This document shows positions 9,660 to 64,000 of a DNA stretch of 64,000 nucleotides, piece after piece. The position numbers and the translations under genes were made by a program. This stretch comes from Anaerolineales bacterium (GTDB taxonomy: Bacteria > Chloroflexota > Anaerolineae > Anaerolineales > E44-bin32): positions 4,408 to 68,407 of the forward strand of contig DAOUDW010000087.1 of assembly GCA_034430895.1 (NCBI GenBank), written 5' to 3'. The notes under the pieces were generated by a model. That model was not told the origin of the DNA, did not search any database, and saw only the letters and a list, made by a program, of their open reading frames with translations. The first letter of the stretch is position 1, and each line of letters opens with the position of its first letter.

Positions 9660-10871
9660 CTATTGAAGCCACATCATGTTCGAAATGCTCTGGCCCTCAG
9701 AAAGACCGATATCGAGTGATGTGACTTCATAAGTAACCAGATCAACTATGTATGAATGATATACAGGCCCTGGATCGACGGATGTAAAAGCTAGCTGTAA
9801 TCCATCAGGTGATACAGATGACAGGTATGATATGTCATGCGGGATAGAAACCTCTTCTTCAAGATCACCTGATGCAGAATAAAGGTAGTGATGATACTCG
9901 TCGAGGACAGGATCACCAGTGACGATCTGTACTAACAAACGCTGCCCGCCATCTATCCATAGCCACGCATCGCACCAAAATTGCTTATCTTCCAGTGGAT
10001 GTGTTAGCTTGACCTCGCCGGACAATTCGGCATCTACAATATATAGTGCTGGTTGATAGACACCTTCTATTTCTGCAAGCCTAAACGTAACAAGACGATC
10101 TCCTTTTGGAGAGAATACGGGAGACGAGAGATTTTCCAATTCCTCTAACCCGGAGCCATCAATTTTTGCCCGCCAGGTTCCCTGATTAAATATCCCCGCA
10201 TTTGAGACTAGACCTTCCTCCCACATAATTATTGAATTAGAGTGCGTATTATAGAGTCGTAAAATATCGCTTCCTTTTTGTGTGATCTTCTTTAGATCTG
10301 ATCCATCTTCGCGGACGGAATATATGAAATCTTGTCCTTGCTCTTGTCCAATGAACACAATCGTGTCTATCCCTGGGAGCCAATATGCTCGTGTGAAACC
10401 GGTTTCGCCTGACAAATTATTTGCGACGTCAATTATTTCTGATCTGTTGGGTGTACTGACCATAAGCCGCTCAGATTGAGAAATCAGAATTTTATCGCCA
10501 TCGGGAGATACTGCTTCGAGTCGATATCCCTCATCAACAACTTGCGTCAGTTTGCTAGAGCCAACATCGAATGAGAAAATCCCTAAAGAGGGGCACGCAT
10601 CAACACAGGTTTCGCTTGTGTCGAGTATTTCCAATAGCAAGGTTCCCGACCCGCCCAAGGGAGTAATTGTCGGACTCGGTTGTAGGGTAGGAGTCATCGT
10701 GGGGGAAGGCGTTGGCTCTAAGGTGCTTGTTGGCTCTTTCGTAGCCTCTTGCGAAGAAGGCGCGCTGGCTTTTTCAGAAGAACTACAAGCAGTAACGAGC
10801 ACGATTGCAAACAACCCGATGCAAACCAGAATCGGCGCATTATATCCAGTTCCTGTCGCTTTTTGCTGCAT
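9660..10871 (-). CDS. PD40/TolB-like beta-propeller lipoprotein (paralog 1)
   Basis: Signal plus lipobox (VLVTACSSS), PTSTLEPTPSPT linker, and repeated SPDGDK / SPKGDR / SPDGLQ PD40-type motifs. ATG at 10871 follows AGGAGGG. Confidence 0.65.
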   Translation of the reverse strand: MQQKATGTGYNAPILVCIGLFAIVLVTACSSSEKASAPSSQEATKEPTSTLEPTPSPTMTPTLQPSPTITPLGGSGTLLLEILDTSETCVDACPSLGIFSFDVGSSKLTQVVDEGYRLEAVSPDGDKILISQSERLMVSTPNRSEIIDVANNLSGETGFTRAYWLPGIDTIVFIGQEQGQDFIYSVREDGSDLKKITQKGSDILRLYNTHSNSIIMWEEGLVSNAGIFNQGTWRAKIDGSGLEELENLSSPVFSPKGDRLVTFRLAEIEGVYQPALYIVDAELSGEVKLTHPLEDKQFWCDAWLWIDGGQRLLVQIVTGDPVLDEYHHYLYSASGDLEEEVSIPHDISYLSSVSPDGLQLAFTSVDPGPVYHSYIVDLVTYEVTSLDIGLSEGQSISNMMWLQ

Positions 10872-10966
10872 CACACCCTCCTGAGAAATTCCCTCGTAGC
10901 AGAGCATCAAACCAAAGGATGCCATTGGCTTTCATTCGGGAACATATGAAAAGCGTAATCACAAAA

Positions 10967-12160
10967 TTAATAAAGCCACATCATACTTGCAATTGCTTGA
11001 TCCTCGGGAAGATCAAACTCAAGTGGCGTGACTTCATATGTAAGCAGATCGAGCAGGTAGAGATCGTGGTTTGTTAAAAATAGCTGTAATCCGTCGGGGG
11101 ATACCTTTGTGTCTGACATCGGAAACGGAATATCAACTTCTTCTTCAAGCGCACCTGATGCAGAGAATATGAAAGAATACTGATGAATTTCGTAAGATGG
11201 CAATTCTTCGTCGACACTTACCAACAGATTCTTTCCGCCCCTTATCCATTGGATGTAAAGCCCATAATGCCGCCCGACAAGGTCAAATTCGATCGGAAGC
11301 GCAAGTTGAACTGCCTCCGATAAGTCTGCCGATGCTATATAAAATACCACATCAAATCCCGACGTTATTTCCCAATATGCAAGATGAGCTCCGGTTGGAG
11401 AGTAAACAGATCCCCTTATTTCCTTCAGGGTTTCCTGATTGGAGCCGTCCATGTTAGCTTTATGCCAAAGGGGGGGGGCAAAGTAAATTGAATTTTTGTC
11501 CTGTTCTAGCCACATGATTGAATTGCTTGAGTGAGTATTGGCAAGGCACCACAACTCCGCCCCTTGTTGTGTAATTTTCTTCAAATCCGTTCCATCTTCG
11601 CGAACAGAATATACATAATCTTGTCCTTGATCTTGCCCAAGAAAAACAATCGTGTCTGTTCCAGGAAGCCAATATGCCCTGGTACTATGACTGTCATTCC
11701 CTAGAAAATTCTGCGCAATGGCAACGAATTCCGATTCGTTGAGCAGTGCGAGCATAAGGTTTTCGGATTGAGAAACCAGGAATTTGTCGCCGTTGGGCGA
11801 TACGGCTTCAAGTGCGTATCCATCATCAGTAACCCTGGTGAATTCACCCGAGACGACATCGAGCGCGAATATTCCCAGATAATCATCAAATGTGGTTGGC
11901 CGCAGATCCAGGAGCACAACCCCCGACCCGCCTAAAGGAGTGGGGGTGACCGTCGGGCTTGGGCTGGGCGTTGGCGTCGACGAGGGAGAAGGCGTTGGCT
12001 CTAAGGTATCGGTTGGTTCTTTCGTGGCCTCCGGCGAAGGCGGCGCGCTGGTGACCGCAGACGAACTGCAGGACGTCATGAGCGTGATTAAGAATAGCAC
12101 GATGAAGATGGAAATGAGAGCGGTTGTTCCATACCAAAATCCCGCCGCTTTTTGTTTCAT
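10967..12160 (-). CDS. PD40/TolB-like beta-propeller lipoprotein (paralog 2)
   Basis: Same architecture as 9660-10871 and collinear with it (…AYWLPG.DTIVF.GQ.QGQD..YSVREDG.DLKKITQ…). ATG at 12160 follows GGGAGGA. Confidence 0.65.
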   Translation of the reverse strand: MKQKAAGFWYGTTALISIFIVLFLITLMTSCSSSAVTSAPPSPEATKEPTDTLEPTPSPSSTPTPSPSPTVTPTPLGGSGVVLLDLRPTTFDDYLGIFALDVVSGEFTRVTDDGYALEAVSPNGDKFLVSQSENLMLALLNESEFVAIAQNFLGNDSHSTRAYWLPGTDTIVFLGQDQGQDYVYSVREDGTDLKKITQQGAELWCLANTHSSNSIMWLEQDKNSIYFAPPLWHKANMDGSNQETLKEIRGSVYSPTGAHLAYWEITSGFDVVFYIASADLSEAVQLALPIEFDLVGRHYGLYIQWIRGGKNLLVSVDEELPSYEIHQYSFIFSASGALEEEVDIPFPMSDTKVSPDGLQLFLTNHDLYLLDLLTYEVTPLEFDLPEDQAIASMMWLY

Positions 12161-12281
12161 GAAATCCTCCCTGTTATTTACCTTGCACCAGTGAATCGAA
12201 TAAAAAAGCGCTGGCTTCAATAACCTTATTCAGAATACCCCATAAAGCGCTCAACCGCAAAACATACATCATTCACGCGGC

Positions 12282-21000: not shown

Positions 21001-21066
21001 CAGCAGCGCCAGCGGCAGGGCGCGGCGAAAAATCTGTGTCGTTTTGTGAGAAATATTCGTTTTCAT
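18004..21066 (-). CDS. large bitopic cell-surface protein: signal/anchor, Cys-rich region, Ig-like domains, Pro-rich linker, TM, charged coiled-coil, glycine-zipper hydrophobic region, helical-repeat tail
   Basis: Features in order: N-terminal LPLALLLGLLVVVPVLA; 20+ Cys in the first 200 aa; DTRPPSV / DTIAPTT Ig-like boundaries; PPEDPPAEPPGDTGGGDTGGGD linker; TM LLAGAAAVAAVGAAMNVVTAA followed by KKKRKDEEKK; EAEQEAARLEAEREAIKAEREA coiled coil; GVGIGSAVAVGVGSLLVTAAFGF...GLGASLAV. Confidence 0.7.
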   Translation of the reverse strand: MKTNISHKTTQIFRRALPLALLLGLLVVVPVLADYIGPDRTVTTYVNQRKRCHYVAVHDPVGPGYDSCTLNLYVPPNDSCPSNVSGYFSNDSHSCGSGWPFDWPSCCNDPETSCSITPSSSTVSCSAGETGCRSVAQTTTHPPATISGNINCPQTGDNGYCTAAASLSLSGDEPLSGYSIITLEGTQNGATFACSGDSCAINLVEGANAFTFWALSDWGDSSLMGSTNRGVDTRPPSVNASASGISGSGSWYVSAVTIEASAADPSPGSGLASFQAAVDGSGWNAYSGPITLNNGNHTVELLATDNAGLSDSASMSFQIDTIAPTTVITDPTGTTWATGTITLSGVSSDLNLSGAEISTNGGSSWSGLSPDGGGNWSTTWDTHTVANGSYSVRARGLDQAGNVGGAAAVTIMVDNGEPHIYIPASWPIWRRVAINVVDNGIGVDRVRLTIHGGSYGERVYNWHSGQDDFKWDRLFGDIVAPIGGYPVEVEAWDQVGNKGAAWGEIVIPEPDEVEQEDDPGVLSVAPPEDPPAEPPGDTGGGDTGGGDMAPAAEDPPAAPSVVTFESEPETETEEIAPPAGSSNLLAGAAAVAAVGAAMNVVTAAKKKRKDEEKKQAAAAAIFNQTQIALEEKQAQNAAQAKWEAEQEAARLEAEREAIKAEREAQGITTGQPAPPYFIYVEAQKQRQREEDLRKRKEEQKQAELRAQEEELRRADRVDYRHTQVKEETIEAPPTGIMKWIGKAGKFINSMASAIDLRKIRFTPLPSGHVSVSAPGVPPGEKLAFRTGSDVNIPGTRYKPTTLSWTTLKSLGRRAFNGIKTNLGVSAAVNAYDYLLGSNKGGSLGEFTASTIVDTAVSTGVGIGSAVAVGVGSLLVTAAFGFTAPFAVLAGATVLVGLGASLAVDHFFGEEIAEIKQKFGATLDSGLSAWKGIRQNAQVIADHVGDKLSEVSDNIQTTVNNTIENVRNTVTDVAATLEQTSNNIGTAVENGIDNVKSTVGNAAKTAGDAVSNFFNGLFGGD

Positions 21067-39053: not shown

Positions 39054-39196
39054 TTTAATTAGACAAGTATTGTCTACATTTTATCACGCGGGATTTTGGT
39101 TTCTACAACGCTATTTCACTTAAATTATAATATTGTCATTTGGTAAACTTATGCTTTAAAAACAATCAAATGAAATCTGTAATAGTCCTTTGCCGC

Positions 39197-39223
39197 CCTG
39201 TAGGGGGGAAAAACCTCATCCGG
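39197..39223 (-). repeat. interspersed repeat copy (inverted orientation) upstream of the giant gene
   Basis: cctgtaggggggaaaaacctcatccgg is the reverse complement of 55190-55215 at 24 of 26 positions. It merges into the palindrome GAAAAACCTCA-TCCGGA-TGTAGTTTTC. Confidence 0.6.
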
Positions 39224-39493
39224 ATGTAGTTTTCTATGCTATACGATATTTAGGGTAGCTGAAGGTTCAAGATGGTTATGATAATGTCAGTTGTAGAAAC
39301 ATAAGGAGCGGAACCCACCAGATTGAGATAACACTCCGCTGAAAAATCATTCGATTTTCAAGCTCCCTCTTTTCCAATTTGTTATCCAAAAAAACAATAA
39401 CATTCCAGCCCGTTCGACGCAAGGAAAGCCATAACAGGGATACAAGCGTCGTTGGTTTACCGCAGGGTTACCGTTGTATTACCGTTTGGTAAC

Positions 39494-39516
39494 AATCCGC
39501 GACGATGCGGATTTTT
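39494..39516 (+). terminator. terminator-like hairpin inside the 780-nt leader of the giant gene
   Basis: AATCCGC-gacgat-GCGGATT followed by TTTT, about 320 nt upstream of the start codon. Confidence 0.4.
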
Positions 39517-39836
39517 GGTGTATAAACTTGTAAGTGAGATCGGTAAAAGCAGATTTGATGAGGGTATCTTAAGTATCGTCATAAGTGCGATATCATGTGG
39601 TGTTAAGTGTCCTAGTAGGTCGATTTATCACCAAATGCTTGAATTGCCGCTCGAGTTGTTGTAATGTGATACAAGTTTCGGTATTGTTCATACATTCCCT
39701 TTCGCTGGTATTCAACAACCCAATATCCAACTCCCTGCGTGGTTAAACCATCCTTTGCGCATACCAACAAAGCCCACGATGTTCCAGGGAGATGACAGAC
39801 CTGTATCTTGAAAGTTACTGTTTCTGGAGAGGAAAA

Positions 39837-42800
39837 ATGTCCATGTCCCGCACAACCCTTACTTCTGTAATTCGCGATTTTTCACGACCGCGCTTCCGGC
39901 TTTATCGATTACGATCAGCCATTATAAAGATATTAAACGCCGGCGTAGCTGCATCCATGCTTACTTCGATGAGCGGCGTGGCTCTGGCTAGTGCAGCATC
40001 TGATGCGGATACAAACGTGGAGATTCCTCTCCCGGCCCCTTACAAGAGTATCGAAGCTCTCGTAGAGCCCAACATCGTCCAGAGTACATTCGACAGCGAT
40101 GACGAAGGATGGACGATCGTCGGTGATGGGGACGGTCCGACATATAACGCCACCGGTGGCAATCCGGGTGGGTACATCAGCTCTACAGACCAAGCGTCAA
40201 GCGAATATTGGTATTGGCAAGCCCCGGCGAAATTCCTCGACGATCAATCCGCTGCATATGGCAGAACACTGAGCTTCGACCTTGTCCAAAGCGTCACCGA
40301 TGACCAGGATGATCAAGATGACGTTGTCCTGGTGGGAGATGGTATCACGCTTGTATTTGACACTTCATATAACCCGGGAGATACGTGGACGCATTATGTG
40401 GTCACGTTACATGAAAGTGCCGGATGGCTAAATTCAAGCACAGGCCTTGCGCCATCTTCTATCGAATTCACCCAAGTTTTGACGAATCTCGAATCTCTTC
40501 TCATCCGCGGCGAGTATCGTGTTGGCGATGATACCGGCGGACTCGACAATGCTGCTTTTTCGGTACTCTGCCCAGAAACGGGGAATCTCATTGTTCCAAT
40601 TGGAACTTCGTGCTGGCTCGAGGCTGGCGAATATACATTCGACAGCATCACCGTCGAAGCTGGCGGGCTGATTTATCTCGAAGGTGATCCAGTTACCGGC
40701 GAAGGCGTCATTCTCAATTCCACGACAATCGTTGTGGAATCTGGAGGTGAGATGACCGCCACTGCGCTGGGATACCCGATCGGCCAGGGTCCGGGAGCCG
40801 GGAGCGGGACCGATAAGACGGGCGGCGGGGGACACGGCGGCTATGGAGGAAATGGGACCGAATACAATGCAATCGGCGGTGTGGGATACGGTTCGCTGTT
40901 CGAGCCCATCACGCTGGGTAGTGGCGCGGGAGATCGCCCTGAGGGTGGCACTGGAGGGGGTGCGATCCATCTCATTGTGAACGGCACACTGCAGCTGGAC
41001 GGCACGGTATTGGCCGATGGTGGTGCTGGCACCCAATACGAACGGGGTGGCGGCGCCGGTGGCAGCATCTGGATTGAGGCGGCCTCATTGGCCGGTTCGG
41101 GCCTGATCCGCACGAATGGCGGCAATGCGGGTTACATGGGCGGTGGAGGAGCGGGTGGGCGCATCGCCATCGATGCAAGCAGCAACAGCTTCACCGGATC
41201 GGTGAACGCACACGGCGGCACGGGCAACCAGGCCGGTGGTGCGGGGACAATCTACTGGACAGTGGATGATCACCTGGTGGTCGACAACGGCGGCAACAGC
41301 GGTAAGCAAACCCCCCTCGAGGAAGACGATTACGACTTCGAAAGCATCACACTCAATGGCAATGCCATCCTGCAAGTGGAAGGGGCTAACTCTTCTATCA
41401 CCCTGGACAATACAACCATCCAGGGGGATGGCACAGGCAGGCTCACTCCATTCGGGACGGCGTATGTTCCTGTTGACCTTATTATTAATGATTACACGTT
41501 GAATTTGGAAGGGCAGATGCCGGGGGTGCAGACTGTGACTGTCGAGTCGGGCGGCGGTCTGATGTTCAGGCCGGGCTCACAGTTCTACTCTGGCTCGTAT
41601 GCCTTCCAGTCTATTGAGGTGAGAGACGGCGGCAAATTGTATGCATACCCGTATATCGCGGGTGGCGGGGTTTATTCGAATGATTATGGCCTCACGCTCG
41701 AGGTCGGGAACCTGACCGTCGATGCTGGTGGTGAGGTTACAGCCACCGGGTTGGGATACCCGATTGGGCAAGGACCGGGAGTCGGGAGTGGAAGCGATGA
41801 CACGGGTGGTGGGGGACACGGTGGTCTGGGAGGAAATGGAATTGAAGCCAATGCAACGGGTGGTGGGGCATACGGGTCGCTTTTCGAGCCCATCACGCTA
41901 GGCAGTGGCGCGGGTAATGTAGGACAGGGGGGGAGCGGAGGGGGCGCGATCCATTTACTGGTGAGCGGCACACTGCAGCTGGATGGCACAATATCTGTCG
42001 ATGGTGGTTCTTCTACCCAATACGAACGGGGAGGCGGCGCCGGTGGCAGTATCTGGGTCGAAGCGGCATCCTTTACCGGGACGGGTTTGATTCGCGCCAA
42101 TGGTGGCAATGGAGGCACACAGGGTGGTGGTGGTGGCGGCGGGCGCATTGCCATCGATGCAAGCAGCAACAGCTTCACGGGCTCGGTGAACGCGAGTGGC
42201 GGTACAGGGAACGAGAGAGGTGGGTTTGGTACGATCTACTGGACGGTGGACGATCATCTGGTGATCGACAATGGCGGGGTCAATGCTAGACCATCTGTTA
42301 TCGTCGAGGGGGATTATGATCTCAATCTCATCACGCTCAGTGGCAATGCTATCCTGCGGGTGGAAGGTGCCAGCTCATCCATCACTCTTGATAACACAAC
42401 CGTTCAAGGAGATGGTACAGGTAGACTGATCCCATTTGGCACAGTCTTAACTCCGGCAGCTTTCACGGTTGATAACTTCGCCTTGGATTTGGAAGGAAAA
42501 TTTGATGGGGTTACGAATCTCACCGTAGGAAGCAACGGCGAATTGATCCTACGAACATATACAGCGCTTTATTCTGGAATCCACACCTTCTCCAGTGTTG
42601 ATGTGGTTTCTGCCGGGCGGCTAATATTCGTACCATACAATAATGGGGATTCCGATTACACGAACGATTCTCCATTCGAGCTGCACGTAGACACACTGAA
42701 TATTGATGCTGCCGGCATCATCACCGCTGAAGGTTCGGGGTATCCTCGCAATCAAGGTCCTGGCACGCCGACGTCAAGTGGTGGTGGCGGGGGTGGTCAC

Positions 42801-45800
42801 GGCGGGGCTGGGGGGAACGGACTTCACGGATCTGGGGGAACATCATACGGTTCCTTGTACCAACCGGTTCTATTCGGTAGTGGAGGCGCCGATGACGCAA
42901 ATGGTGCAGCATCTGGAGGCGGCGCTATTATTCTGGTCGTCGAAAATGCGATCACCGTCAATGGGATTCTTTCGGTTGATGGCGCATCAAACAGTGCCGT
43001 TAGCAGCAGTGGAAGTGGAGGTGGTGGATCGGGAGGTAGCATCTGGGTTACAGCCGATACCCTCAATGGTTCAGGCGTTGTATCCGCTGACGGTGGTAAT
43101 TCCACGAATGGCGGAGGCGGCGCGGGCGGACGTATCGCCGTCTACGCCGAGACAGTCGATCCCAACCTTTCCCTTTCCGTCATGGGAGGAGCTGGCGGCG
43201 ATCCTGGAGACCTGGGGACGACGTATTTGGGAAATCTGGATCCCACACTCTCAAGCATTACCATCGATCCGGACACTGTGCCCACCCTCGTTTCGAGTTA
43301 CGGTGAGATTAGAGTAACTTTACGCAACGAATTTGGATTGCCCATCCCTGGCAAGCCGGTATCTGTGGCCTTGATTTCTGGTGATGAAGCCTACATCAAC
43401 GATCAACTCGTGGGTTTGAATGATTTTATCGACATCGGATTGACGGATATCGATGGTAATGCGACCGGTACGATCCGCGCCGAGACCCTCGGTCTACGAA
43501 CGGTCCGAGCTCGCAGCGAGCAGGAACTCATCCTGGCTGAGGCGACCGTCGAATTTATTCCGGGGCCCTTCGATCCTGGCACATCCACGATTGATGCCAC
43601 TCCGCAGCAAGTTCCGGCTGACGGCAGTACACCGGCCAACTTGATTGTCACGACGCGTGATGCGTTTGGCAATCCTGTCCCCGGAGCTGAGGTGACCCTG
43701 ACTACTCCAAGCGGGACGCTGACCCAACCTGCAACACCTACCGATGCGAATGGTCAGACCAGCGGTACGCTGACGCACGATGCCATCGAAGCCATCACGG
43801 TTTCCGCACTTGTCGACAGCGTAATGTTTGATGACGAGGCGACTGTTGATTTTCATGGATCCGATCTGGAGGCAGATATTACTGCCCCAGACGAAGCAAT
43901 TGCCGATGGCACAGTGACGTATTCGATTACTGTGAAGAACATGGATCTGTTAACCGCGAATGGCGTGACGGCAACCCTGGAGCTTCCAGCCGAAGTAACC
44001 TATCTCTACGACAGCGCGCCCACCGATCCAACGCAAAATGGGAACGAGTTGACCTGGGAGCTGGATGCTCTGCCTCATAACAATGCAGTGTCTTTCAGCG
44101 TCACAACCGACGTCAATCCAACTGTACCCGCTGGCAGTACACTCACGGGTGTGATTAATGTAAGCACGACGTCACCGGAAGCCAACACCAGTAACAATGT
44201 AAGCAGCGACAGCACGACCATCGTCGATGCGTTCGATTTCACGGTCGCATTGATCCCCACCAGCGCCACGCTCAACATGGGTGGCGCAGCGCAGTACACC
44301 ATCCGAATTCGCAACGTCGGTTTCGTCGGTGACAGCTATGCCATCAGCGTCGATGGTCTAGATGCAAATTGGATCGAGCTTGGCGACAATGAGATCGGCA
44401 TCTCCCCGGGTGCGAGTCGAGATGTGACACTGACCATATCGCCGGACGGTTGCCAGGCGGAGGAAATCTTACCCTTCAGTGTATCCGTCCAATCCAATGG
44501 CGGCACCATCAAGACAGCCCAGGGTGAAGTATCGCTGGTACAGGTGCCGAACATCACGCTGGATAAACCGAAGGACAATTCAACATCCGGTTCTCGTTCC
44601 GTGCTCTTCAGCTGGCGCACGAATCCGACCACAACGGGCACATTGACGGTCTACCCACAGGGTCAACCTGCCGAAGCACAGACTTTCAACTCCTCTCAAG
44701 GCGCCACGCACAACATCCAGGTGGAGGATCTCGAGCGCTACGTGACCTACGAGTGGTACGTGCAGGCCGATTCGACTTGCGGTACGCAAACCAGCGCAAC
44801 ACGAACCTTCACTGTCGGCAGCGGCATTGTGTTCGTAAGCCGCAATCCTTCCTTTGAACTTGCCCGTGATTACGATCAACGTTTCTCGATCACGGTGCGC
44901 AACGATGACAGCGAGGCACACACCTTACTGGCGACGGTCCAGAATCCTTACGAGGATTTGATACTCAACTTCGTCGGCAGCGGCAGCGTAGACGAAACGA
45001 TCACACTTTCCGCAGGGCAAAGCCGCACGCTGGAACTGGTCGTGCACGCCCAGGACGCAACGAATCATGAGTACGACCTTTTGGCCGAGATCACCGCTGA
45101 TGACGGTACTTCAATTCCACTGACCGACAACACCAGCATCCATCTGACCGTGCTCTTCGAATTCGATGTGAGTGTGGTTGAGGATTCAGTTGACCCGATC
45201 ACCGGCGTGAAGACCTATACCGTCACCAACAACGGTTTGCCGATCACCGACCTCGAAATCAGCGCCGCCGATCCCACCAGCGGCGAACCGGCGCGGGTGA
45301 TGTTCTTGCCTTCGATCTCCCACGGAAAGCTCGATACTGGGGATTCAGTCACCTTCGATATGATCCCGCTTTTCGACGAACGGGATGTCGCGGGGATGAG
45401 CGCCCTACCCTCCGGCGGTAATCTGGCCTCGTATTTGCCCAACAGTGAACCGGGAATTATTAGTGCGAATCTGATCGTCGGCGGCGCTGGCCAGGAACAA
45501 GTACAGTCGTCGAATATGAGCTGCCCTTCCGGCAGCGTGCACAGCGCGCCACTGGAAGATGTGTGTTTGGAGCTCCAAAACAGCAACTGGTACTGCACCA
45601 ACAAACCGAACATCAGCATGCCTTTCTACCTGCCCTTTATCGTCGAGCAGGATCTGATCGAATCTGTCAATCTGCAGATGGATTTCCACCCAAGAAGCAA
45701 CGTTCAGGATCACACTACCAGTATCTCTTTGAACGGTGAGCTACAGGGTACGCTGGATAATATGATCCCCAACGGCACATTCTCCACGCGTGTTCCCCCC

Positions 45801-48800
45801 GACACGCTACACACCAGCGAATACGGTTCGACAGTGCAGGAACTCGAACTGAATTCGGTTCATAACAATCCGGGGCATTACGTATCCGTAGCCGATTTCA
45901 GCCTGGGCATCGGTCTTCAATCCACCACGGCGTATGTTTGCGCTGAATCTCCTGAAGATGCCAGCGAAAACGCCATGGATGCCTTCCATCTCAAGCCCTC
46001 GGAAATTGCTTCGGCCTGTGCTTCGGTCGGTATTCCTGTCGAATCGGTCTTGTCCTCCGGAGACGATTGCTGCGCAGCGTACGGCGCCACACAGGTTAAC
46101 GTGGGTGGCGAAATCAATACTCGCACGGGGGGCATGGACTATTCTTTTGTTGACATATCCATCCCCACCTCTGCTGGAACGCTTTCTTTCAAACGATGGT
46201 ATTCCACACTCACGCTCGAGGACTATGCGGATACACTAGGATATGGTTGGACTCATAGTCTGGACACGCGTCTGATCTTCCCCGACGATCCTCTCGGTCG
46301 TGAGGGTGTGGTATTGATGAAGCTGCATGCATCCAATCGCTACCAATTCACCATCGAGGATGACGGCACCTTCACACCCTTTCCTGGATTTACTGGGGAG
46401 TTGACCGCTTCCGGTGATCCGCTTACGTTTACTTACGCAACACCAGGACAATACGATTATCATTTCGACGCGGATGGGAAATTAATTTCCCGATCCGACC
46501 CTCGGGGTAACGCATTGCAATACACATATAACGCGGAAGACCGTTTAATCCGTGTCGAAGACGACAATGGGCAACGTTACCTGGAACTGGATTACGATGC
46601 ATTGGGACGAGTTAACTCGGTTCAGGATCATACAGATCGTGGCGTTACCTTTAACTACAACGCCGCCGGTGACTTGAGTTCCAGCGTCGATTTACTCGGC
46701 GGCACCTGGACCTACTTTTATGATCCTACGCTGCCGCACTACCTGTCTGAAGTGCGTGATCCCAGCGGCACCACCCTCGAACGCACGGTTTTCGATGAAC
46801 AGGGCCGCGCCGTAGAACAGTACAACGGTGAGGGCGAGTTGGCCGTGCGTCTCGAATATGAAGGTTTCGGTTCTACCAAGGTCTACGAAGCCACCGGCAA
46901 CCAGTCGATGCACGTCTACGACAGCAATGATGCCATTGAACGCCAGGAGGATCCTTTGGGTGGCCTGAACCGGCGTGAGTACGACGACAACTTCCGCCCC
47001 ACTATGATCACCGACGAGGACGGCGACACTACCCACCTGACCTGGAGCGAGGACGGCACCAACCTGACCCAGGTGATTGATGCCGAGGGCAATCCGGTCA
47101 ACCTGTCTTACGACGAAAACAACAACCTTACTTCTATTGTCGATCCGCTCGATACGGAGACCAGCTATGCCTACGACGGGTTGCTGCTGACCTCCAGCAC
47201 CGACGACGAGGGCAATACCACCAGCTACACCTACACACCTGAAGGGTATCTGCAAAGCATCACCGACGCGGCCGGAAATACGACATCTTACACTTACGAT
47301 TCTTATGGCCAACAAGTTTCGATGACCGATGCCTCAGGCAACACCTGGCTCTACCGCTACGACGATCTTGGCCGCCTGATCGAGAACGAGGATCCCAACG
47401 GCGTGATCGCACGCCGCGAGTACGACGCTGCCGGACGGATGATCCGCTCGACGCGCAACTACGATCCCGCCCGCCCGCAGAACGACGAGAACCTTTACAA
47501 CATTGTCACCGAGTACGTCTACGACGCCGTGGGCAACCAGATCGAAGTCATCGACACCTTCGGGCGTAGCACACAGTATGTCTACGACGACGCCAATCGT
47601 CTAATCCGCATGTTCGATTCCGCCGGCAACGAGACGACCAATACCTTCAACAACGCCGGGCAATTGGTTGCTACGACCGATGTCTTGGATCGCATTACAA
47701 CTTTCGTCTACGATGAACTCGGCCGCATGGTGGAGATGCACGACGCGCTGGGCAACATCACCACCACGGTTTACAACCCCGACGGCACCGTCGCCAGCAC
47801 ATCCGATGCGTTGGGAAACAGTACTTCGTATACCTACGACGACCTCAAACGCGTCGCGGCCACAACCGATGCCCTCGACGGCACGACGACCACTACCTAC
47901 GACGAGTTAGGCAACGTGATCGCCACGACGGACGCCCTGGGGAATACCACAACCTACGAATACAACTCGCTAGGCCAATTGACACACCAAACCGACCCCG
48001 AAGGTGGAAATATACAGTACGTTTACGACGAACTCGGCAACCGCATCGAGACCATCGATCCGCGCGGGAATTCGACGTTTTATGTCTACGACGATCAAGG
48101 CCGCCTGGAGACGGTCACCGATGCGCTGGGCGGTACAACGACATACACCTACGACGCCTTGGGCCGTCGCCTAGCCATTACCGATGCAGAGGATAACACC
48201 ACCAGCTACAGCTATGATGAACTCGGTCGACAGGTTTCTGTAACTGATCCGTTGGGGAACACGACTTCTACGGAATTCGATGCGCTCGGCAATGTACTCA
48301 GCCGTACGGACGCCAATGAAGAGACCACCACGTATGTTTACGACGTGCTTGGCCGACTGGAATCCCAGACCGACCCGCTAGGTGGCATTACGACCTATAC
48401 CTACGACGCCGCCAGTAACCAACTCACGGTAACCGACGCCGAAGGGCACACCACCACGACGGTCTACGACGAACTCAACCGGCCGGTCTCGGTGACTGAT
48501 CCCCTGGGAAATACAACCACCACAGCCCATGACGCCACCGGCAACGTACTCGCCACCACCGACGGCTCGGGGCAGACGATCACGTTCACCTACGACGAAC
48601 TGGGCCGCCAGGAGACGGTCACCGACCCGCTGGGCAACACGACGAGCTACGCCTACGACGCCGTGGGCAACCGCATCTCGCTGACCGACACCAACGGCGT
48701 GGTCACACGCTACGAGTACGATGGGCTGAACCGTCTCACGGCAGTGGTCGAGAACTACCTCTACGGCGCGCCAGCCGATCACGAGACCAATGTGCGTACC

Positions 48801-55357: not shown

Positions 55358-57265
55358 TCAAGGATTAAGTACTTGGAGCAACGCTGTACTTGGGCTTGGT
55401 TTATCAGGATCCTGTGCTTCAAAAACTTGTTGTTCATTAGCAATACTAATTGGACACCGTTCCCAGAGGTTATGACGAGCGAGGAATGAGTCAAATTGCA
55501 TGCCCGAAGCACCAACATCAATACGCCTCAATTCATATGGACCATACGCATCAATCCCCTTTTCGGCCCACAATTTCCATACTTTTTCTGTCCAGACGAG
55601 GCCATTTCCATGTCGTTCCCATGTATCCCACCAATCTGTTAGTTTCAAGGTGATTTCAGGTCCATAAATGCCTTCGAACTTCATAGGTAGACAGTGAGGG
55701 TCATTATATTCGAAGAGTTGCATTCGCTCCTCTACAAGTTCCAGAAGTTCTTTCTTCTTAACGCGTAGAATGTCAAGCGTGGGTTTATTGAAAACGACAG
55801 CGTATTCACCTACTGCTTGATCACCACCTACCATGTCATCTGGATCTGAAACTTTTCTTACAACGAGAAATGGGCAGTTTTCATAAAGATTGTGTTCAAT
55901 ACTCCAGATTTGTTTTCTAAGTTCAATAATCGCCATCGTATTTACATATAAGCTAACAGCTATGTTAAGTTCGAGGTCGACATTCAAAAGCTTTTTTAAT
56001 GTCTGTTCATATGCTCGCATATATCCATATGCCATATTTATATTAATGAGACCAGGGTTGACCTCCATTGAATTGTGCACATGCATTTCAGAAAATATTG
56101 GGATATTCTCCACATCTGCAGGCCATTTGCCAAACTCTGGCTTTATCTCATTAGCCGTTATTTCAGCTGATTGGGTGTCCATGAGACGATAGAGAATCTT
56201 GACCATATTCGAGTTATGGTAGCTGCCCGCTGGCTCCCTTAATGGCTCCTCAGGTCCAGCTAATATTGAAATAACACGCTCTGCTCCAAGCTCAAGAGCA
56301 GCCCTTATGGGGAGTACGTCTCTCACTCCTCCGTCTACAAAATGTCCATCCTTATATGGATCAGCCCGTAAATCTTTCGCTTCATAAATACAAGGGATCG
56401 AAGATGACGCGATAGTACCTTGGACAAGGGCATCCTTAATAGTACCCATCCCATTCTCTGCATCCAACTGCCAAGACACTTCGGGCGTATTGGCATTTCC
56501 TTTAATAAGTCTTGCATCTTCGGTCACATACCATGTCTGGGCATCCTCGAGACACACTGTCGCAAGACGCATCTTAATGTAAGGTGTGAGAGATGTACCA
56601 AACTTGTTAAAATCAACTTTCGCCTTTATTAATTCCTCTATTGGCTTGAGTGTGTAAAGGCTAGGAGCTGAAAAGAATAGGTTTATTACCTTTAAAATCT
56701 TTCCCAGCATATCTGTTAAGTCCTCAATCACACCAACGGCCAAGGTCCCGAAGGATAATATATTCAAAAGTACAAAACCGGCACCAACACCGGGAAGTTC
56801 AGGCTCACCCCCATTCACCCCTCCTGTCTCAATAACTTGGTCTATATCCACATTGAGATCATCTAATATTTGAAGTATCTCTCCGATGTTTTTATGCGGA
56901 AGGTACATGTCATTTTCACTCTGAAGGGAAAGAAATAAACTGACGAGATCCTTGACGCCCTTATAGCCAGATTCCGCAATTTTAAGGGCCATAATTGCTC
57001 CTACTGAAGTTCCACAGACATATCTCAAATTGATCTTTTTCCAAATATCAGATCTCGTAAGATAATCTAGAGCACCTACTTCGAAACTTCCTTTGGAGCC
57101 TCCACCAGAAAGTACTAATGCAGTGGCTGGGACATTATCATCTACATGTCCGAAATGTCTTTTCTTCAGGTCTAGCGGATCAAGTCCTGGACGCTCAGGC
57201 TCCTCAACAGGAATTTCACCTATTGGTACAATTTCGTGATCCCTTTCTGGGTCTAGGTCAGGCAT
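55358..57265 (-). CDS. patatin-like phospholipase with large C-terminal extension
   Basis: Oxyanion LVLSGGGSKGSFEVGAL, nucleophile elbow GTSVGA, and catalytic Asp FVDGGVRD. ATG at 57265 follows GGGGAG. About 300 aa after the catalytic domain have no recognisable motif. Confidence 0.85.
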   Translation of the reverse strand: MPDLDPERDHEIVPIGEIPVEEPERPGLDPLDLKKRHFGHVDDNVPATALVLSGGGSKGSFEVGALDYLTRSDIWKKINLRYVCGTSVGAIMALKIAESGYKGVKDLVSLFLSLQSENDMYLPHKNIGEILQILDDLNVDIDQVIETGGVNGGEPELPGVGAGFVLLNILSFGTLAVGVIEDLTDMLGKILKVINLFFSAPSLYTLKPIEELIKAKVDFNKFGTSLTPYIKMRLATVCLEDAQTWYVTEDARLIKGNANTPEVSWQLDAENGMGTIKDALVQGTIASSSIPCIYEAKDLRADPYKDGHFVDGGVRDVLPIRAALELGAERVISILAGPEEPLREPAGSYHNSNMVKILYRLMDTQSAEITANEIKPEFGKWPADVENIPIFSEMHVHNSMEVNPGLININMAYGYMRAYEQTLKKLLNVDLELNIAVSLYVNTMAIIELRKQIWSIEHNLYENCPFLVVRKVSDPDDMVGGDQAVGEYAVVFNKPTLDILRVKKKELLELVEERMQLFEYNDPHCLPMKFEGIYGPEITLKLTDWWDTWERHGNGLVWTEKVWKLWAEKGIDAYGPYELRRIDVGASGMQFDSFLARHNLWERCPISIANEQQVFEAQDPDKPSPSTALLQVLNP

Positions 57266-57529
57266 CAGGCTCCCCTTTCTTTCTTTATCTTCGAAGATAA
57301 TAAGTAAATGTGTGAAGTAGGTTGAAAAATTAAAAACCCGACTTAAGATGAGTCGGGCTTGCATTGCCTTTTGAAATTATGTGGCTTCCCCCGACACCAC
57401 ACTATTGTTAGTTACACTAAGACAAAATACTATGTGTCAATATTATACAGGATGTAGATTTGGGATTCAACTTCTGTGATGATGCCAGATAACGAGTGGG
57501 GGACAAGTATGGCCGAACCATCAGGATAT

Positions 57530-57603: not shown

Positions 57604-57664
57604 AGGATGATGTTTTTCTACCCAACAAGGTCATTTTTATAGAACGGATGTACATTTTCGGCCA
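57604..57664 (+). repeat. interspersed repeat composite (GGATGATGTTTTTC... plus GAACGGATGTACATTTTCGGCCA)
   Basis: Same two-part architecture as 54909-54966. It overlaps the annotated start of the 57648 ORF. Confidence 0.6.
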
Positions 57665-58007
57665 TCACAATGGCTATTACGATGCCTGTGCTGTGATGAT
57701 CCGTCGACTCTTAGAAACCTTAATCATCGAATGCTATGAGGTACACAAGATCGCCGATGATATTTTGGATGCTAGTGGTGACTTTGTGAGATTGGATAAG
57801 CTTATCGATTGCTTCCTCTCTCAAAAGGAATGGAACATAGGCCGCGACACAAAAAAGCAGTTGAAGAAACTACCATCAATCAAAGGCGTTGGAGATCGAT
57901 CTGCCCATAATAGACGATATATAGCTTCAAAAGATGATATTGATCGAATTGCTGATGATACTAGGTTAGCTATACAGGAACTAGTATCTATTGCATTCGA
58001 AAAGTGA
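57648..58007 (+). CDS. DUF4145/HEPN-like domain protein (possibly N-terminally truncated)
   Basis: GYYDACAVMIRRLLETLIIE and IKGVGDRSAHN resemble the DUF4145 blocks (aca...R.llE / lR..GN.aaH). The start codon lies inside a repeat that also occurs at 54943. Confidence 0.45.
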   Translation: MYIFGHHNGYYDACAVMIRRLLETLIIECYEVHKIADDILDASGDFVRLDKLIDCFLSQKEWNIGRDTKKQLKKLPSIKGVGDRSAHNRRYIASKDDIDRIADDTRLAIQELVSIAFEK

Positions 58008-58136: not shown

Positions 58137-59312
58137 TTACAATTGATTGTGTTCTTCACTGTCTGTGTATATGTACTGCTTACGATAACTTTCCCTCAAC
58201 TCATCGATAACCAGTAATTCATTATCTTCTGACGCAAAATACCAGTTCTGCCACCCATTGCATGGACTACCACCCATCAAATGCTTTCCCGCTTGATGGA
58301 TTGAACCCTCAAACCCATCTGAAAGCCGAAGTTTTCCATCTGGTTTAATAAAGGCATTTCTTGCACGATCCTTCTGGAAAAATAGCTGCTGCCCTGGCAG
58401 CAAATAATTTGTTTCAAGCAAATTCGCAAAACCAACACGCGGGGCTAAGCGTTTTTTATCGCTTACATCAAACACATCATCAGCCCGTGGCTCGGATAGC
58501 ATCGGTTTTACGTCATCAATTCGTTTTTTAGCAATCTTGATGTAGTCTCTGTCCTGCTCAATCCCAATCCAATGGCGGTGAAGCTTCTTTGCTACGGCTC
58601 CTGTTGTACCAGTTCCAAAAAATGGATCCAAGACAATATCTCCCTTTTGTGTCGATGCAATTAAGACACGAAATAACAAGGCTTCTGGTTTTTGAGTTGA
58701 GTGGGCTTTCTTGCCACCCTTTTTTTTGATTCTCTCAGCTCCTGAGCAGATTGGTAAAACAAATTGTCTCGGAATTGGCCAGTCACTGCGAAGCTGTTTT
58801 CCTTCATTAAACTCTTTCATCGCATGATGATTGAATGAATATTTTGCACCTTTTGATTTGCTAGCCCATATTAGCGTTTCATGGGCATTCGTCAAACGAA
58901 CTCCTCGGAAATTTGGCATAGGATTCGTTTTAATCCAAACTACGTCATTTAAGATCCAATAACCCAAGTCTTGGATGATTTTCCCAATTCGATATATATT
59001 GTGATAAGTTCCTATCACCCAAATAGTTCCTGTATCCTTTAGTACCCGCTTGCATGCGTTTAACCACTTTTTACTAAAGAGGTCGTATTCACCATTGTTT
59101 TCAAACTGATCCCATGAATCATTTACAGCGTCAACTTGCGTCATATTAGGACGCCATAATTCGTTTTGTAGCTGAAGATTGTATGGAGGATCGGCGAAAA
59201 CGAGATCAACAGAGCTTTCGGGAAGAGAGTTCAGTACCTCAATACAATCCCCTTGGATTATCTGATCTACTGGCAATTCGTTTTTCATAATGATTTTAGT
59301 AATACCTGTCAA
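58137..59312 (-). CDS. beta-class N6-adenine DNA methyltransferase, CcrM/M.HinfI family
   Basis: Motif IV VFADPPYNL precedes motif I DPFFGTGTTGAVA (beta-class order). The C-terminal RVGFANLLE...LPGQQLFF...PDGKL...GSIHQAGKHL...CNGWQNWYF is the CcrM-type extension. Confidence 0.85.
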   Translation of the reverse strand: MTGITKIIMKNELPVDQIIQGDCIEVLNSLPESSVDLVFADPPYNLQLQNELWRPNMTQVDAVNDSWDQFENNGEYDLFSKKWLNACKRVLKDTGTIWVIGTYHNIYRIGKIIQDLGYWILNDVVWIKTNPMPNFRGVRLTNAHETLIWASKSKGAKYSFNHHAMKEFNEGKQLRSDWPIPRQFVLPICSGAERIKKKGGKKAHSTQKPEALLFRVLIASTQKGDIVLDPFFGTGTTGAVAKKLHRHWIGIEQDRDYIKIAKKRIDDVKPMLSEPRADDVFDVSDKKRLAPRVGFANLLETNYLLPGQQLFFQKDRARNAFIKPDGKLRLSDGFEGSIHQAGKHLMGGSPCNGWQNWYFASEDNELLVIDELRESYRKQYIYTDSEEHNQL

Positions 59313-60171
59313 TTCTTTCTAACAATGATTTTGCTAGATTCTGATACTCATCAGATTTCTGCTTAGAAAAATGGCCAAACAACAACATCAGGGTCGTCCC
59401 CTCGCTGAATAATACACGAATAATACCATCAGCCCAAATCTGTTCATTCGATATCAGTTTTCTCCAATAATGTAGCCGGATTGATTTGATATCTTCGAAA
59501 CTCTCTCGTGGTGATGCATCGAGATCAATTTCAGGAAAGTCATCGAGCTCCCTCCTCCAATCTGTTAGCCAAGATACAAATTCGAACCAAACTGTAGGGA
59601 AACTTAGGTATGTGAACAAATCCTTTCCATAGAACAGGTACAGGTCTAGGCCGTAAATATCCTTTAATTTGTCCAATTGCTCCTGGTAGAACGATTTGCT
59701 TTTTGAAAAGGCTGGATCAACAAAGTACATGATGCCGATTAGATTCTTATGATGCTCTTGGTAGAGCCGATCTAGTTTCTCCTCGAAATTCTTTATCTGA
59801 CCACGCTTCTTTGTTGAGTCATGATCATCCCGCATTTTTTGCTCAATAAAGAAGTGTTTTTTTCCTTTCGCGAAGTATTGATCCAATGATAGCGATGTTT
59901 TATCATCGATGTTGAGAACAAGATCAAGGTTAGTATATCCTTGCTCCGCAAGGATTTCTCGCAGCAATAGTTCAATAGCATCCCCGAACCGAATCTCGTG
60001 AGATTGCAATAGATTTTGAATTATCTTCGCCCGAGGCTTCGTCGGTCGAAAATCACCCAGGTATCTCTCCGGATTCAAAGCAAGTTTCTCAATAATGTTT
60101 ATCTTATCGGCTTCGAATACCTGAGAGTGCAGAAGCCTTATTGCTTTCTTGGAATCCATTCCTAACCCCAC
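59296..60171 (-). CDS. uncharacterised protein, candidate PD-(D/E)XK restriction endonuclease partner of the methyltransferase
   Basis: SLDQYFAKGKKHFFIEQKMRDDHD gives a D-x13-E-x-K arrangement. The gene overlaps the methyltransferase by 17 nt and the upstream gene by 10 nt. Confidence 0.4.
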   Translation of the reverse strand: MGLGMDSKKAIRLLHSQVFEADKINIIEKLALNPERYLGDFRPTKPRAKIIQNLLQSHEIRFGDAIELLLREILAEQGYTNLDLVLNIDDKTSLSLDQYFAKGKKHFFIEQKMRDDHDSTKKRGQIKNFEEKLDRLYQEHHKNLIGIMYFVDPAFSKSKSFYQEQLDKLKDIYGLDLYLFYGKDLFTYLSFPTVWFEFVSWLTDWRRELDDFPEIDLDASPRESFEDIKSIRLHYWRKLISNEQIWADGIIRVLFSEGTTLMLLFGHFSKQKSDEYQNLAKSLLERIDRYY

Positions 60172-62134: not shown

Positions 62135-62306
62135 TATAAAGCATAATATGGCCGGATTACTGGGGAAACTCAGCTTGAAAGCTCTTAGAAATAAAGCATA
62201 ATGTGGCCGAAAGTGCAAAAATAAAGCACAAGCTGGCCGTAAGTTCTTTAAACATCCTTTTCGTCAATACCGATTCTACACGGACAAGGTTTTTCCACCC
62301 TACAGG
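62135..62306 (+). repeat. iteron-containing repeat unit U3 (direct repeat of U1)
   Basis: Iterons at 62135, 62190 and 62221 have the same spacing as in U1, followed by ACACGGACAAGGTTTTTCCACCCTACAGG. Confidence 0.75.
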
Positions 62307-62483: not shown

Positions 62484-62662
62484 AAACGGTCAGATTTTGC
62501 ATTACAAAGTAAGAAACGCGAGGACGGGAGCAAAATCCAACTGACCTGCCGTTAAAGAATATGCGAAATCCTTTCGGGGTCTCTGAGTCCCTTGCAATTG
62601 ATCGAAAAACCTATTTGATATATGCTTGGTACAGCTTTAATGACATTATTTCTTTTTGCAGT

Positions 62663-63277
62663 CTAGATTATTTAACACTTCAATATTATTACATTCCTTA
62701 TCTTAACCGCTGGATCCAGCCCGATACTATTTTACCTAATCCCACCAATCCGCAAAGTTATAACAGATACACATATGTGTATAACAATCCGATCCGATAT
62801 AACGATCCAACTGGGCATTATGTTCCAGCAGAGGTTTGTGCAATGGGTGGGGCAAATATACCCCATTGTAATTCTAAAACAGGTAGTTATTTTTACACTG
62901 GTCTTAACTCCGACTTAGAGTCAACAGACTGGGAAGATAGATATGGAGGACCTCTTGCAAAGAAGACATATGATCTGATATCACGTAATTATTATATTTG
63001 GGGAAGGGAAGGGTCAGAGGAGATCGAGAAAGGATTGGGTGAATATCCACCTCCGTTATTCGATATATCAAAATGGAATGGGTTTCGAGAAATAGTTACG
63101 GCTTTCAAGTTGGGCAGTCAACCAATCATGTGCCCAGATCTCTATATACTCGGATTAGATTCCTTGGGTATAAGTTGTATGTCCTCAAAACATTTGAGAC
63201 AAAACAGGCATTTCACTAAGAGAGTCTTTTCAGCCCCGATCTACACTGGAGTATACACCCTCTCCCGCATGGCATGA
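62663..63277 (+). pseudogene. orphan Rhs core-end plus alternative toxin tip, 3' end replaced by IS sequence
   Basis: LDYLTLQYYYIPYLNRWIQPD...NRYTYVYNNPIRYNDPTGHY aligns with RARYYIPWQSRFMSKD...ANDAPITSFDPTGHY of the main gene, and an unrelated tip follows. The ORF end overlaps the transposase gene. Confidence 0.7.
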
Positions 63278-64000
63278 GCCCTGCGACGCTTCTCCATGGT
63301 TCTCCGTTTGATCTCTTCTCTCCGATCCAGCACCTCCTTTTCACGGCCAAAATAGACATCGGCTGGCGTCAAATTGTCCAGCGCTTCATGATATCGACCA
63401 TTGTTGTAGTAGTCCACGAACGCCGCTATGGCGTTATTCAGGTCCGATGGAGAGTAGTAGTTCTCCAGCAGGACGACATTTTTCATCGAACGATGCCAAC
63501 GCTCGATCTTGCCCTGCGTCATCGGATGATATGGAGCACCGCGCACATGATCCATATGCTTGCGTTTGAGAAACCGCTCCAGATCTTTCGAAAGATAGGC
63601 TGGACCGTTGTCCGAGAGCAAACGCGGCCGGTGCCGCACACGGGCTGTTTCCAGCCCAGTTCGCTCAAGCGCCAGCTTCAAGGTTTCTTCGACGTCTTCT
63701 GCTCCCATGCTGGACGACAGCCTCCAGGCGATGATGTAGCGGGAGTAATCGTCCAGGACGGTGGACAGGTAATACCAGCCCCAGTGATTGAAAACCTTGA
63801 AATGGGTGAAATCGGTCTGCCACAGTTCATGCACCCGCCGAGTGGGTTTCTCGAACTTCTCCCGGGCGGGCACCATCTGGAACACCGGGCTCTGGATCAA
63901 GTCAAAGCTCTTCAGAATGCGGTATACGCTGGATTCCGAGACGAAATAGCCCTGCAGATCGGTGAATAGCCAGGCGATCTGCCTTGGAGATTTCTCCGGA
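63241..64000 (-). mobile_element. rve-type DDE transposase gene (IS3/IS481-like), 5' end beyond the window
   Basis: WQTDFTHF, LSTVLDDYSR and LLSDNGPAY...YHPMTQGKIERWH (D, D, E region). The frame stays open to nt 64000 (…SPRQIAWLFTDLQGYFVSESSVYRILKSFDL). Confidence 0.85.

Follow-up and report, generated by a model that had tools for sequence, protein, structure and literature searches.

The stretch of DNA considered here, referred to as the window, comprises 64,000 nucleotides of contig DAOUDW010000087.1 from the Anaerolineales bacterium assembly GCA_034430895.1, and on its forward strand it carries a gene for a giant protein of the Rhs (rearrangement hotspot)/YD-repeat type. The product is probably a polymorphic toxin that is exported through the general secretory (Sec) pathway and is then displayed on the surface or released, with one cocoon of YD repeats, an array of domains that faces outwards from it and a protease at the C-terminus that would act on the cell envelope.

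Architecture of the giant protein

The gene is a single open reading frame (ORF) on the forward strand, at 39792-54269, which is free of interruptions and specifies 4,825 amino acids from its first ATG. The likelier start is the second ATG, at 39837, since a GGAGAGG sequence sits 6 nt 5' of it, and this gives a protein of 4,810 amino acids with a mass of 511 kDa and a pI of 4.1; residue numbers follow the full-length, 4,825-residue numbering. An earlier note on this DNA, made from the letters and their translations, had described one frame for a giant Rhs/YD protein that joins a laminin-B-like domain, three Gly-rich modules of about 330 residues, Big_1-like and DUF11-like immunoglobulin (Ig) domains, a YD-repeat shell, an internal 12-copy array, the Rhs core end DPTGH and a tip of 293 residues. 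This description is borne out: the frame is open throughout, the listed domains were recovered by profile searches, and the RHS_repeat, YD_repeat_2x and TIGR03696 core profiles that identify an Rhs/YD toxin were all detected. The parts of the gene are as follows.

39792..54269, +, giant Rhs/YD polymorphic toxin gene (ORF call; likely start 39837)
39837..39995, +, putative Sec-type signal peptide or signal anchor (inspection by eye, hydropathy)
40212..40559, residues 141-256, +, Laminin_B-like beta-sandwich (profile match, E 5e-20)
40560..43511, residues 257-1240, +, three Gly-rich modules (pairwise alignment, profile and homology searches)
43512..44213, residues 1241-1474, +, Big_1/Invasin_D3 Ig-like domains, then DUF11 (CLIPPER) (profile search)
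44214..46106, residues 1475-2105, +, Ig/fn3-like domains and a Cys-containing region (FixG_C-like match, weak fn3/DUF11)
46107..46283, residues 2106-2164, +, DUF6531, interpreted as the plug at the N-terminal end of the cocoon (profile search)
46284..49517, residues 2165-3242, +, YD-repeat shell, part 1 (profiles, alignment to solved shells)
49518..52595, residues 3243-4268, +, array of 12 CarboxypepD_reg domains (profile search, repeat analysis)
52596..53147, residues 4269-4452, +, YD-repeat shell, part 2 (alignment to solved shells, continuous with part 1)
53148..53387, +, Rhs-associated core with DPTGH at residue 4528 (TIGR03696, residue check)
53388..54269, +, predicted papain-like cysteine protease toxin domain of 293 residues (homologue alignment, model, Foldseek, base composition)

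Altogether 28 stretches of the protein match the RHS_repeat profile (E 5e-157), and 21 match YD_repeat_2x. In the intact protein, residues 4274-4531, which follow the array, match residues 1879-2143 of the teneurin-like protein of Bacillus inaquosorum. When the array was removed in silico by joining residues 2096-3240 to residues 4269-4540, the resulting sequence aligned to this same protein (9pt5_A) as one stretch of 873 residues, 539-1411 to 1273-2146, which spans the deletion junction. As a single alignment passes through the junction, the protein contains one normally sized cocoon into which the array is inserted. Taken together, plug, YD repeats and core amount to about 1,400 residues (155 kDa) once the 1,026-residue array is excluded, and the shell is thus not several times the usual size, as had been proposed; the great length of the protein is due to the N-terminal region of about 2,100 residues and to the array. 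In sequence the YD part is closest to Rhs effectors of type VI secretion systems (T6SS), such as 8qjc, 8qja and 7q97. A further PDB match, 'SGS4', was rejected as an analogue from bacteria, since, to judge by a publication on its relative SGS1, it appears to be a YD protein of mosquito salivary glands. The Rhs_assc_core profile TIGR03696 covers residues 4453-4532, and the residues of the aspartyl autoprotease (R4486/R4488, D4501 and D4528) are all present, from which self-cleavage of the core is predicted.

The array consists of 12 stretches that match CarboxypepD_reg (E 5e-97), a transthyretin-like domain, and has a mass of 109 kDa. Each unit is 82 residues long, apart from one with 26 and one with 6 additional residues, and identity between units ranges from 48 to 87%, the inner ones being most alike. 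Every unit contains a conserved Cys pair in the motif NHCxxPGC, the borders of the array are formed by the Gly linkers PGGGTGGP and PGGGGSAP, and the insertion lies about 265 residues ahead of the self-cleavage site. At the DNA level the 246-nt units are only about 75-77% identical, and collapse of the repeats during assembly is therefore unlikely. Unit 7 ends in an extra, partly hydrophobic tail or linker of 26 residues (VADETPPVANYYGAKRSLAMILPVRLAQ, residues 3817-3842, about 51240-51317), which precedes unit 8 near the middle of the array; as a speculation, this linker could be a hinge that folds the array back on itself.

The junction behind the array is common. A query of 433 residues across the junction of array, YD repeats and core matched 2,413 proteins at E<=1e-10, and among the 120 matches listed, which were proteins of up to 758 residues (about 1.75 times the query) so that full-length giant relatives fall outside the range, many span 99-100% of the query and contain both PF13620 and PF25023. 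Their named sources are metagenome-assembled genomes (MAGs) of Chloroflexota or Anaerolineales. The junction relatives are mostly fragments, because assemblies break at the repeats. The gene described here represents in complete form an Rhs lineage that is usually seen broken. CarboxypepD_reg repeats have been reported upstream of the teneurin-like scaffold (PMC6425310), and no description of such repeats inside a YD shell was found in the full-text literature searched. Since the array junction is common in metagenomes, a considerable structural group of Rhs proteins seems to have gone undescribed, and a YD cocoon can evidently carry a 109-kDa multi-domain insertion in its wall. One relative (P0122) has no Pfam match ahead of its final YD segment, and other domain types at the insertion site are not shown by it.

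The integrity of the frame is further supported by a metagenomic relative, L001, that is colinear with residues 260-4510 at about 40% identity and is interrupted only once, by a frameshift inside its DUF11 domain. This colinearity indicates that the architecture is conserved and speaks against an assembly chimera, a concern that the earlier note had raised. Exact database look-ups returned no identical entry for the giant protein, with either start, or for the neighbouring pterin dehydratase.

The front half of the protein is adhesin-like, as had been suggested, with about 2,100 residues of Laminin_B, Gly-rich, Big_1, DUF11 and other Ig-like domains. The N-terminus has Arg-rich residues, after which come a hydrophobic segment of about 26 residues and ALASAA, as would fit a Sec signal; the hydrophobic h-region is long, and a type II signal anchor also fits. 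A twin-arginine translocation (Tat) signal was rejected, as the N-terminus reads RPRFR and has no twin-arginine motif, and Tat export is also implausible for a cargo of about 500 kDa. The three Gly-rich modules (residues 257-590, 591-925 and 926-1240) have a period of about 328 residues; the first two are 66% identical and the third is 35-46% identical to both, with alignment scores far above those of shuffled controls. Each begins with a weak G8-like segment and contains the motif GGR[IV]A[IV] once, at residues 455, 783 and 1112. A PDB sequence search with the module found no relatives among solved structures, and residues 1475-2105 likewise have no PDB sequence relatives. An 803-residue query from the Gly-rich region gave 586 homologues at E<=1e-5, with named sources in Phycisphaerae, Verrucomicrobiota, Nodularia, Elusimicrobiota and Bdellovibrionales; the listing held proteins of up to 1,390 residues, about 1.75 times the query, and full-length giant relatives are outside this range. 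The Big_1/Invasin_D3 match lies at residues 1261-1354 and that of DUF11, or CLIPPER, at residues 1358-1474, the latter being covered by a survey of domains with intramolecular isopeptide bonds (PMC12617251).

The C-terminal tip and its partner genes

The tip that follows the core has no Pfam match at E<=1, no PDB sequence match and none in a word-indexed search. An exhaustive HMMER search retrieved 143 relatives at E<=1e-3, the best of them 44% identical, many of which are preceded by an Rhs core, and the family occurs on other Rhs proteins. The closest relative (P0121) lies on a 2.2-kb contig that ends without downstream sequence. Pfam searches with eight relatives gave two stray matches only, each in a single member (YmiD, E 0.075, and Guanylate_cyc_2, E 0.17). 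A PDB search with a profile of the tip (A1) matched nothing except Rhs cores, because the alignment behind it contained cores; this alignment was too diverse for the locus search, in which a trimmed alignment (A2) was used.

The fold was approached by modelling. With the homologue alignment, AlphaFold2 returned a model of the tip with a predicted local distance difference test score (pLDDT) of 83.5 and a predicted template modelling score (pTM) of 0.85, as against a pLDDT of 31 for the single-sequence model. Foldseek matched the model to staphopains, Lpg2622, the papain-like toxin/immunity pair 9l5u, a C39 domain, a phytochelatin-synthase-like enzyme and a CdiA-CT, with E values down to 2e-5 and a probability of about 1.0, although with modest TM-scores. 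Across 34 homologues the tip residues C86 and H225 never vary, and Q57 and N255 hardly do; the four occur in the order Q-C-H-N (Q4589, C4618, H4757 and N4787 in the full-length protein). In the model C86 starts a helix and H225 is found on the strand 222-226, which is the canonical papain arrangement. The tip is thus predicted to be a papain-like (clan CA) cysteine protease toxin of an uncurated family, with the protease activity itself a prediction. By Pfam search it falls outside the curated families C39, C47, NlpC/P60 and Tox-PL. It may correspond to Tox-PLC39 (PMC3482391).

The guanine-plus-cytosine (GC) fraction falls from 0.594 in the second YD segment and core to 0.398 in the tip, and the break coincides exactly with the core/tip junction at 53388 (DPTGH). 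Downstream of the tip it stays at about 0.40-0.43 and is low for some 9 kb; in the intergenic region upstream of the gene (39054-39791) it is 0.40. A second Rhs C-terminal tip is found beyond this gene:

62561..63277, +, orphan Rhs C-terminal cassette, a core remnant with a different tip of about 150 residues (sequence comparison)

This cassette, which has a GC fraction of 0.40, retains a degenerate core remnant, YYIPYLNRW...NNPIRYNDPTGHY, and shares the core end YYIP...DPTGHY with the giant gene. Its tip has no Pfam or PADLOC match, and no immunity gene is visible before the presumed transposase that follows. The GC break and the orphan cassette are what is usually seen where polymorphic toxin loci exchange their tips.

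In relatives, the tip is accompanied by a partner. All the named relatives belong to Chloroflexota, and the six genome loci are from Chloroflexota MAGs; in every one of these six, a gene for a PD40 protein lies directly 3' of the toxin gene on the same strand. The encoded partners, of 330-420 residues, combine a signal peptide that has a lipobox-like Cys with a linker rich in Thr and Pro and with repeats of the PD40 beta-propeller. A downstream ORF that matches the partner profile (E 6e-121 to 4e-5) is also present at 31 of 35 metagenome loci, some of them near-duplicates; the other four comprise three loci whose contigs stop no more than 330 nt from the toxin gene, and one whose toxin ORF could not be resolved. 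A simple regular expression detected a lipobox-like motif in 20 of 32 partners. The PD40 proteins may be read as cognate immunity proteins that reside outside the cytoplasmic membrane.

Within the window, candidates for such a partner lie away from the toxin gene:

9660..12220, -, tandem pair of lipoprotein genes; lipobox, linker rich in Thr and Pro and PD40-like propeller in both (profile and pairwise comparison)

These paralogous genes, at 9660-10925 and 10967-12220 on the reverse strand, encode proteins that are 50% identical to each other, resemble the partners of the tip family distantly and are weak candidates for unlinked or orphan immunity proteins.

Export, delivery and site of action

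The earlier note had found no genes for known delivery machines nearby and had concluded that export and delivery were unexplained. The first part holds: no Pfam match to T6SS, type VII secretion system (T7SS), toxin complex (Tc), PAAR, VgrG or LXG components was obtained in the giant protein or among the window ORFs scanned, and there are no WXG or SpvB domains in the protein or nearby. To call export unexplained was an overstatement, since a Sec-type signal or anchor together with adhesion domains is a layout already known from YD toxins of the WapA type. A Sec signal with N-terminal adhesion domains is known in bacterial teneurin-like YD toxins (PMC13018210), and RHS toxins with signal peptides are listed for Chloroflexi (PMC3482391).

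It is proposed that the protein works like WapA or a bacterial teneurin-like protein and unlike the cargo of a T6SS, T7SS or Tc. Once the core had cut the chain after DPTG, the protease would stay shut inside the cocoon, whilst the N-terminal half and the looped-out array, both outside the cocoon, would hold or position it on a neighbouring cell. There the protease would be released and would attack an envelope target outside the cytoplasmic membrane. Such a target is suggested by the pairing of the tip family with PD40 proteins, which mostly carry lipoprotein-type signals, and if it does lie outside the membrane then an injection machine would not be needed. Chloroflexota are generally regarded as having no classical outer membrane, in which case a secreted cocoon could touch the wall of its neighbour directly. 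With the tip family and its PD40 partner, the idea of an Rhs toxin that needs Sec only and possibly acts outside the target membrane becomes open to testing, and the protein offers one answer to how Rhs toxins function in bacteria without injection machines. A more elaborate version, which we regard as doubtful, has the array and adhesin half acting as a receptor-binding and gating device, such that the protein would be a self-contained delivery particle, a single-chain functional counterpart of Tc A+B+C that opens on contact with its target, sets free a protease that acts on the envelope and requires only Sec.

Several observations weigh against an exported, envelope-acting toxin of this kind. 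A Sec signal, or possibly a type II anchor, is plausible at the N-terminus, where it was judged by eye from the sequence, and the giant protein has no SLH, LysM or CWB-type Pfam match that would anchor it to the cell wall or S-layer. The position of the array outside the shell is inferred from its size and its Cys pairs. The region directly 3' of the gene (54270-55357) contains short repeats, no convincing ORF and no match to the partner profile. The tandem lipoproteins lie 28 kb away, and their agreement with the enlarged partner profile is only moderate (E 1e-19 and 1e-14 when 844 ORFs were searched), the best pairwise score being 41 bits compared with a typical 49 among true partners. Moreover, the downstream PD40 protein of the relatives could be an accessory factor and not an immunity protein, and, with an analysis that covers 64 kb, a secretion system elsewhere in the genome is possible.

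This last point bears on the idea that some dedicated machine encoded outside the window (T6SS, T7SS, Tc-A-like or of the Photorhabdus virulence cassette type) has the protein as its cargo, with the N-terminal half as an adaptor. The limited view and the resemblance of the YD part to T6SS effectors would favour it, but the N-terminus resembles a Sec signal or anchor, none of the PAAR, VgrG, LXG, WXG or SpvB domains is present in the protein or nearby, and roughly 2,100 residues of Ig- and adhesin-like domains, together with disulfide-type Cys pairs in each array unit, suit an extracellular protein. The named relatives are, in addition, from Chloroflexota, of which T6SS is not known to be typical. 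Machine cargo is therefore judged quite improbable. Somewhat less so, if still unlikely, is a protein that serves mainly as an adhesin or in teneurin-like recognition between cells, the tip being a processing or otherwise non-toxic domain. This would account for the absence of an adjacent immunity gene, and fits the adhesive look of the N-terminal half and array as well as the enrichment of bacterial teneurin-like proteins in socially complex bacteria (PMC13018210). It sits poorly with the intact Q/C/H/N catalytic residues, the consistent pairing of the tip family with a downstream partner gene in relatives, the hallmarks of toxin-tip exchange at the locus and the presence of the self-cleavage residues.

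It is least probable of all, and hardly to be expected, that the gene is an artefact of assembly in which repeats have collapsed or been misjoined or two genes have been fused. Such errors are invited by the long repeats inside the gene, namely three modules of 1 kb and twelve units of 246 nt; the relatives are mostly fragmented in assemblies, and L001 has a frameshift. Against this, the frame is open over 14.4 kb, the array units differ in about a quarter of their DNA positions, L001 is colinear with a single frameshift that falls inside a domain, and both parts of the shell, before and after the array, can be fitted to a single solved shell. The preferred reading is that of a Sec-exported Rhs/YD toxin.

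The locus and comparison with known systems

Between the toxin gene and the orphan cassette lies a low-GC island of about 7.5 kb, bounded on both sides by a direct repeat of 168 bp (54518-54685 and 62137-62304, 84% identity). It resembles an inserted defence island and contains, besides two further genes, the following:

55358-57364, -, patatin-like phospholipase (profile search)
57648-58007, +, DUF4145 gene
58137-59312, -, type II DNA methyltransferase with a RAMA domain
59296-60171, -, type II restriction enzyme

Beyond the orphan cassette, 63241-63900 on the reverse strand reads in translation as an IS3-type (rve/DDE) transposase and overlaps a spurious forward ORF at 63274-63969. A 22-nt motif, GAYGAGGTTTTTCCCCCCTACA, flanks the giant gene, being inverted upstream (39199-39220, -) and direct downstream (+), where copies occur at 54664-54685, about 54857-54878, 55193-55214 and 62283-62304. 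Four matches lie within 3 mismatches, with none expected by chance, and the copy at about 54857 came from a repeat finder. The short repeat families AAAGCATAAnnTGGCCGA and CATATTATTGCCGnTTGT fill 54490-54810.

Orphan cassettes are seen in the relative as well. Upstream of the L001 gene (3546-6903 and 950-3480) there are a PD40 gene, a 556-residue orphan fragment of YD repeats, core and toxin, a 327-residue gene and two transposases. The fragment is 50% identical to residues 4254-4531 of the giant protein, and by sequence L001 appears to be the same orphan-cassette style of locus. Near the start of the window, a TrwB/TraG-like coupling-protein ATPase (33-1814, +) and a protein with a DnaB-like helicase C-terminal domain (7116-8183, +) hint at an integrated conjugative or other mobile element. 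The 1,020-residue product of 18004-21066 (-), a second large protein, which contains Big_13/Big_7 Ig-like domains and whose gene is high in GC (about 0.585 in the 2-kb bin around it), is probably another surface protein. Searches for tRNAs and Rfam RNAs found none in the window.

Turning to known systems, the giant protein is about twice as long as WapA, whose immunity proteins are cytoplasmic, whereas the partners of its own tip family are mostly exported-lipoprotein-like. Sec-dependent proteins of the WapA type from Gram-positive bacteria (WapA of Bacillus subtilis; WapA of Streptococcus suis, PMC12704120) resemble it in having a signal at the N-terminus (putative in the giant protein), N-terminal domains associated with the surface, a YD shell, a core of the Rhs type, a polymorphic C-terminal toxin and no dedicated injection machine. 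It differs from them in its Laminin_B domain, Gly-rich modules and twelve-domain array within the shell, and no wall-binding repeats were detected in it. With the bacterial teneurin-like protein BiTLP (9pt5/9ifo; PMC13018210) it has in common N-terminal adhesion domains, a YD shell that is colinear over 873 residues and, by prediction for the giant protein, a Sec signal, self-cleavage by the Rhs core and an encapsulated variable toxin. The teneurin-like superfold is made up of a fibronectin (FN)-plug, an NHL propeller and a YD shell, with a TIP domain in 96% of members. Profile searches of the giant protein detected no NHL propeller and no FN-plug or TIP domain, DUF6531 being found at the plug position, and as the YD shell alone matches, the protein is not teneurin-like in the strict sense. 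Furthermore, teneurin-like proteins carry CarboxypepD_reg repeats upstream of the scaffold (PMC6425310), in contrast to their position inside the shell here.

The TcB-TcC cocoon of Tc toxins is similar in that a non-YD domain, the TcB beta-propeller, forms part of the shell chain and in that the toxin is, by prediction in the giant protein, self-cleaved and encapsulated. The giant protein, however, has no SpvB/TcB propeller match, no TcA partner was found among the window ORFs scanned, and the insert consists of 12 beta-sandwich domains at another position. Rhs effectors of the T6SS are recognised by a PAAR/VgrG-binding domain or by linked genes, and neither was found in the protein or the window. 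For the tip, the Foldseek match 9l5u ('Papain-like cysteine protease toxin/immunity pair') is presumably the pair Cpe1/Cpi1. Tox-PLC39 and Tox-PL1 (PMC3482391) and Cpe1/Cpi1 (PMC12136450) share with the tip a papain fold, a Cys/His site and a place at the C-terminus of Rhs or contact-dependent inhibition (CDI) toxins, and Tox-PLC39 is listed for Chloroflexi RHS toxins that have signal peptides (PMC3482391). The tip domain differs from these in its larger size (about 260 residues) and in having no convincing Pfam match; the targets of Cpe1, GyrB and ParE, are cytoplasmic (PMC12136450), whereas the tip family is accompanied by a PD40 partner that is usually of the lipoprotein type.

The features of Rhs/YD polymorphic toxins that are found in the giant protein are thus the shell, the core and a tip that looks exchanged, with an adjacent cognate immunity gene absent at this locus and present in relatives. 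What the array does and where the toxin acts we infer. The protein belongs to a known kind, the Rhs/YD toxins, and is noteworthy within it for the missing partner, the papain-like tip family, the front built from Laminin_B and Gly-rich modules, and the array carried inside the shell.

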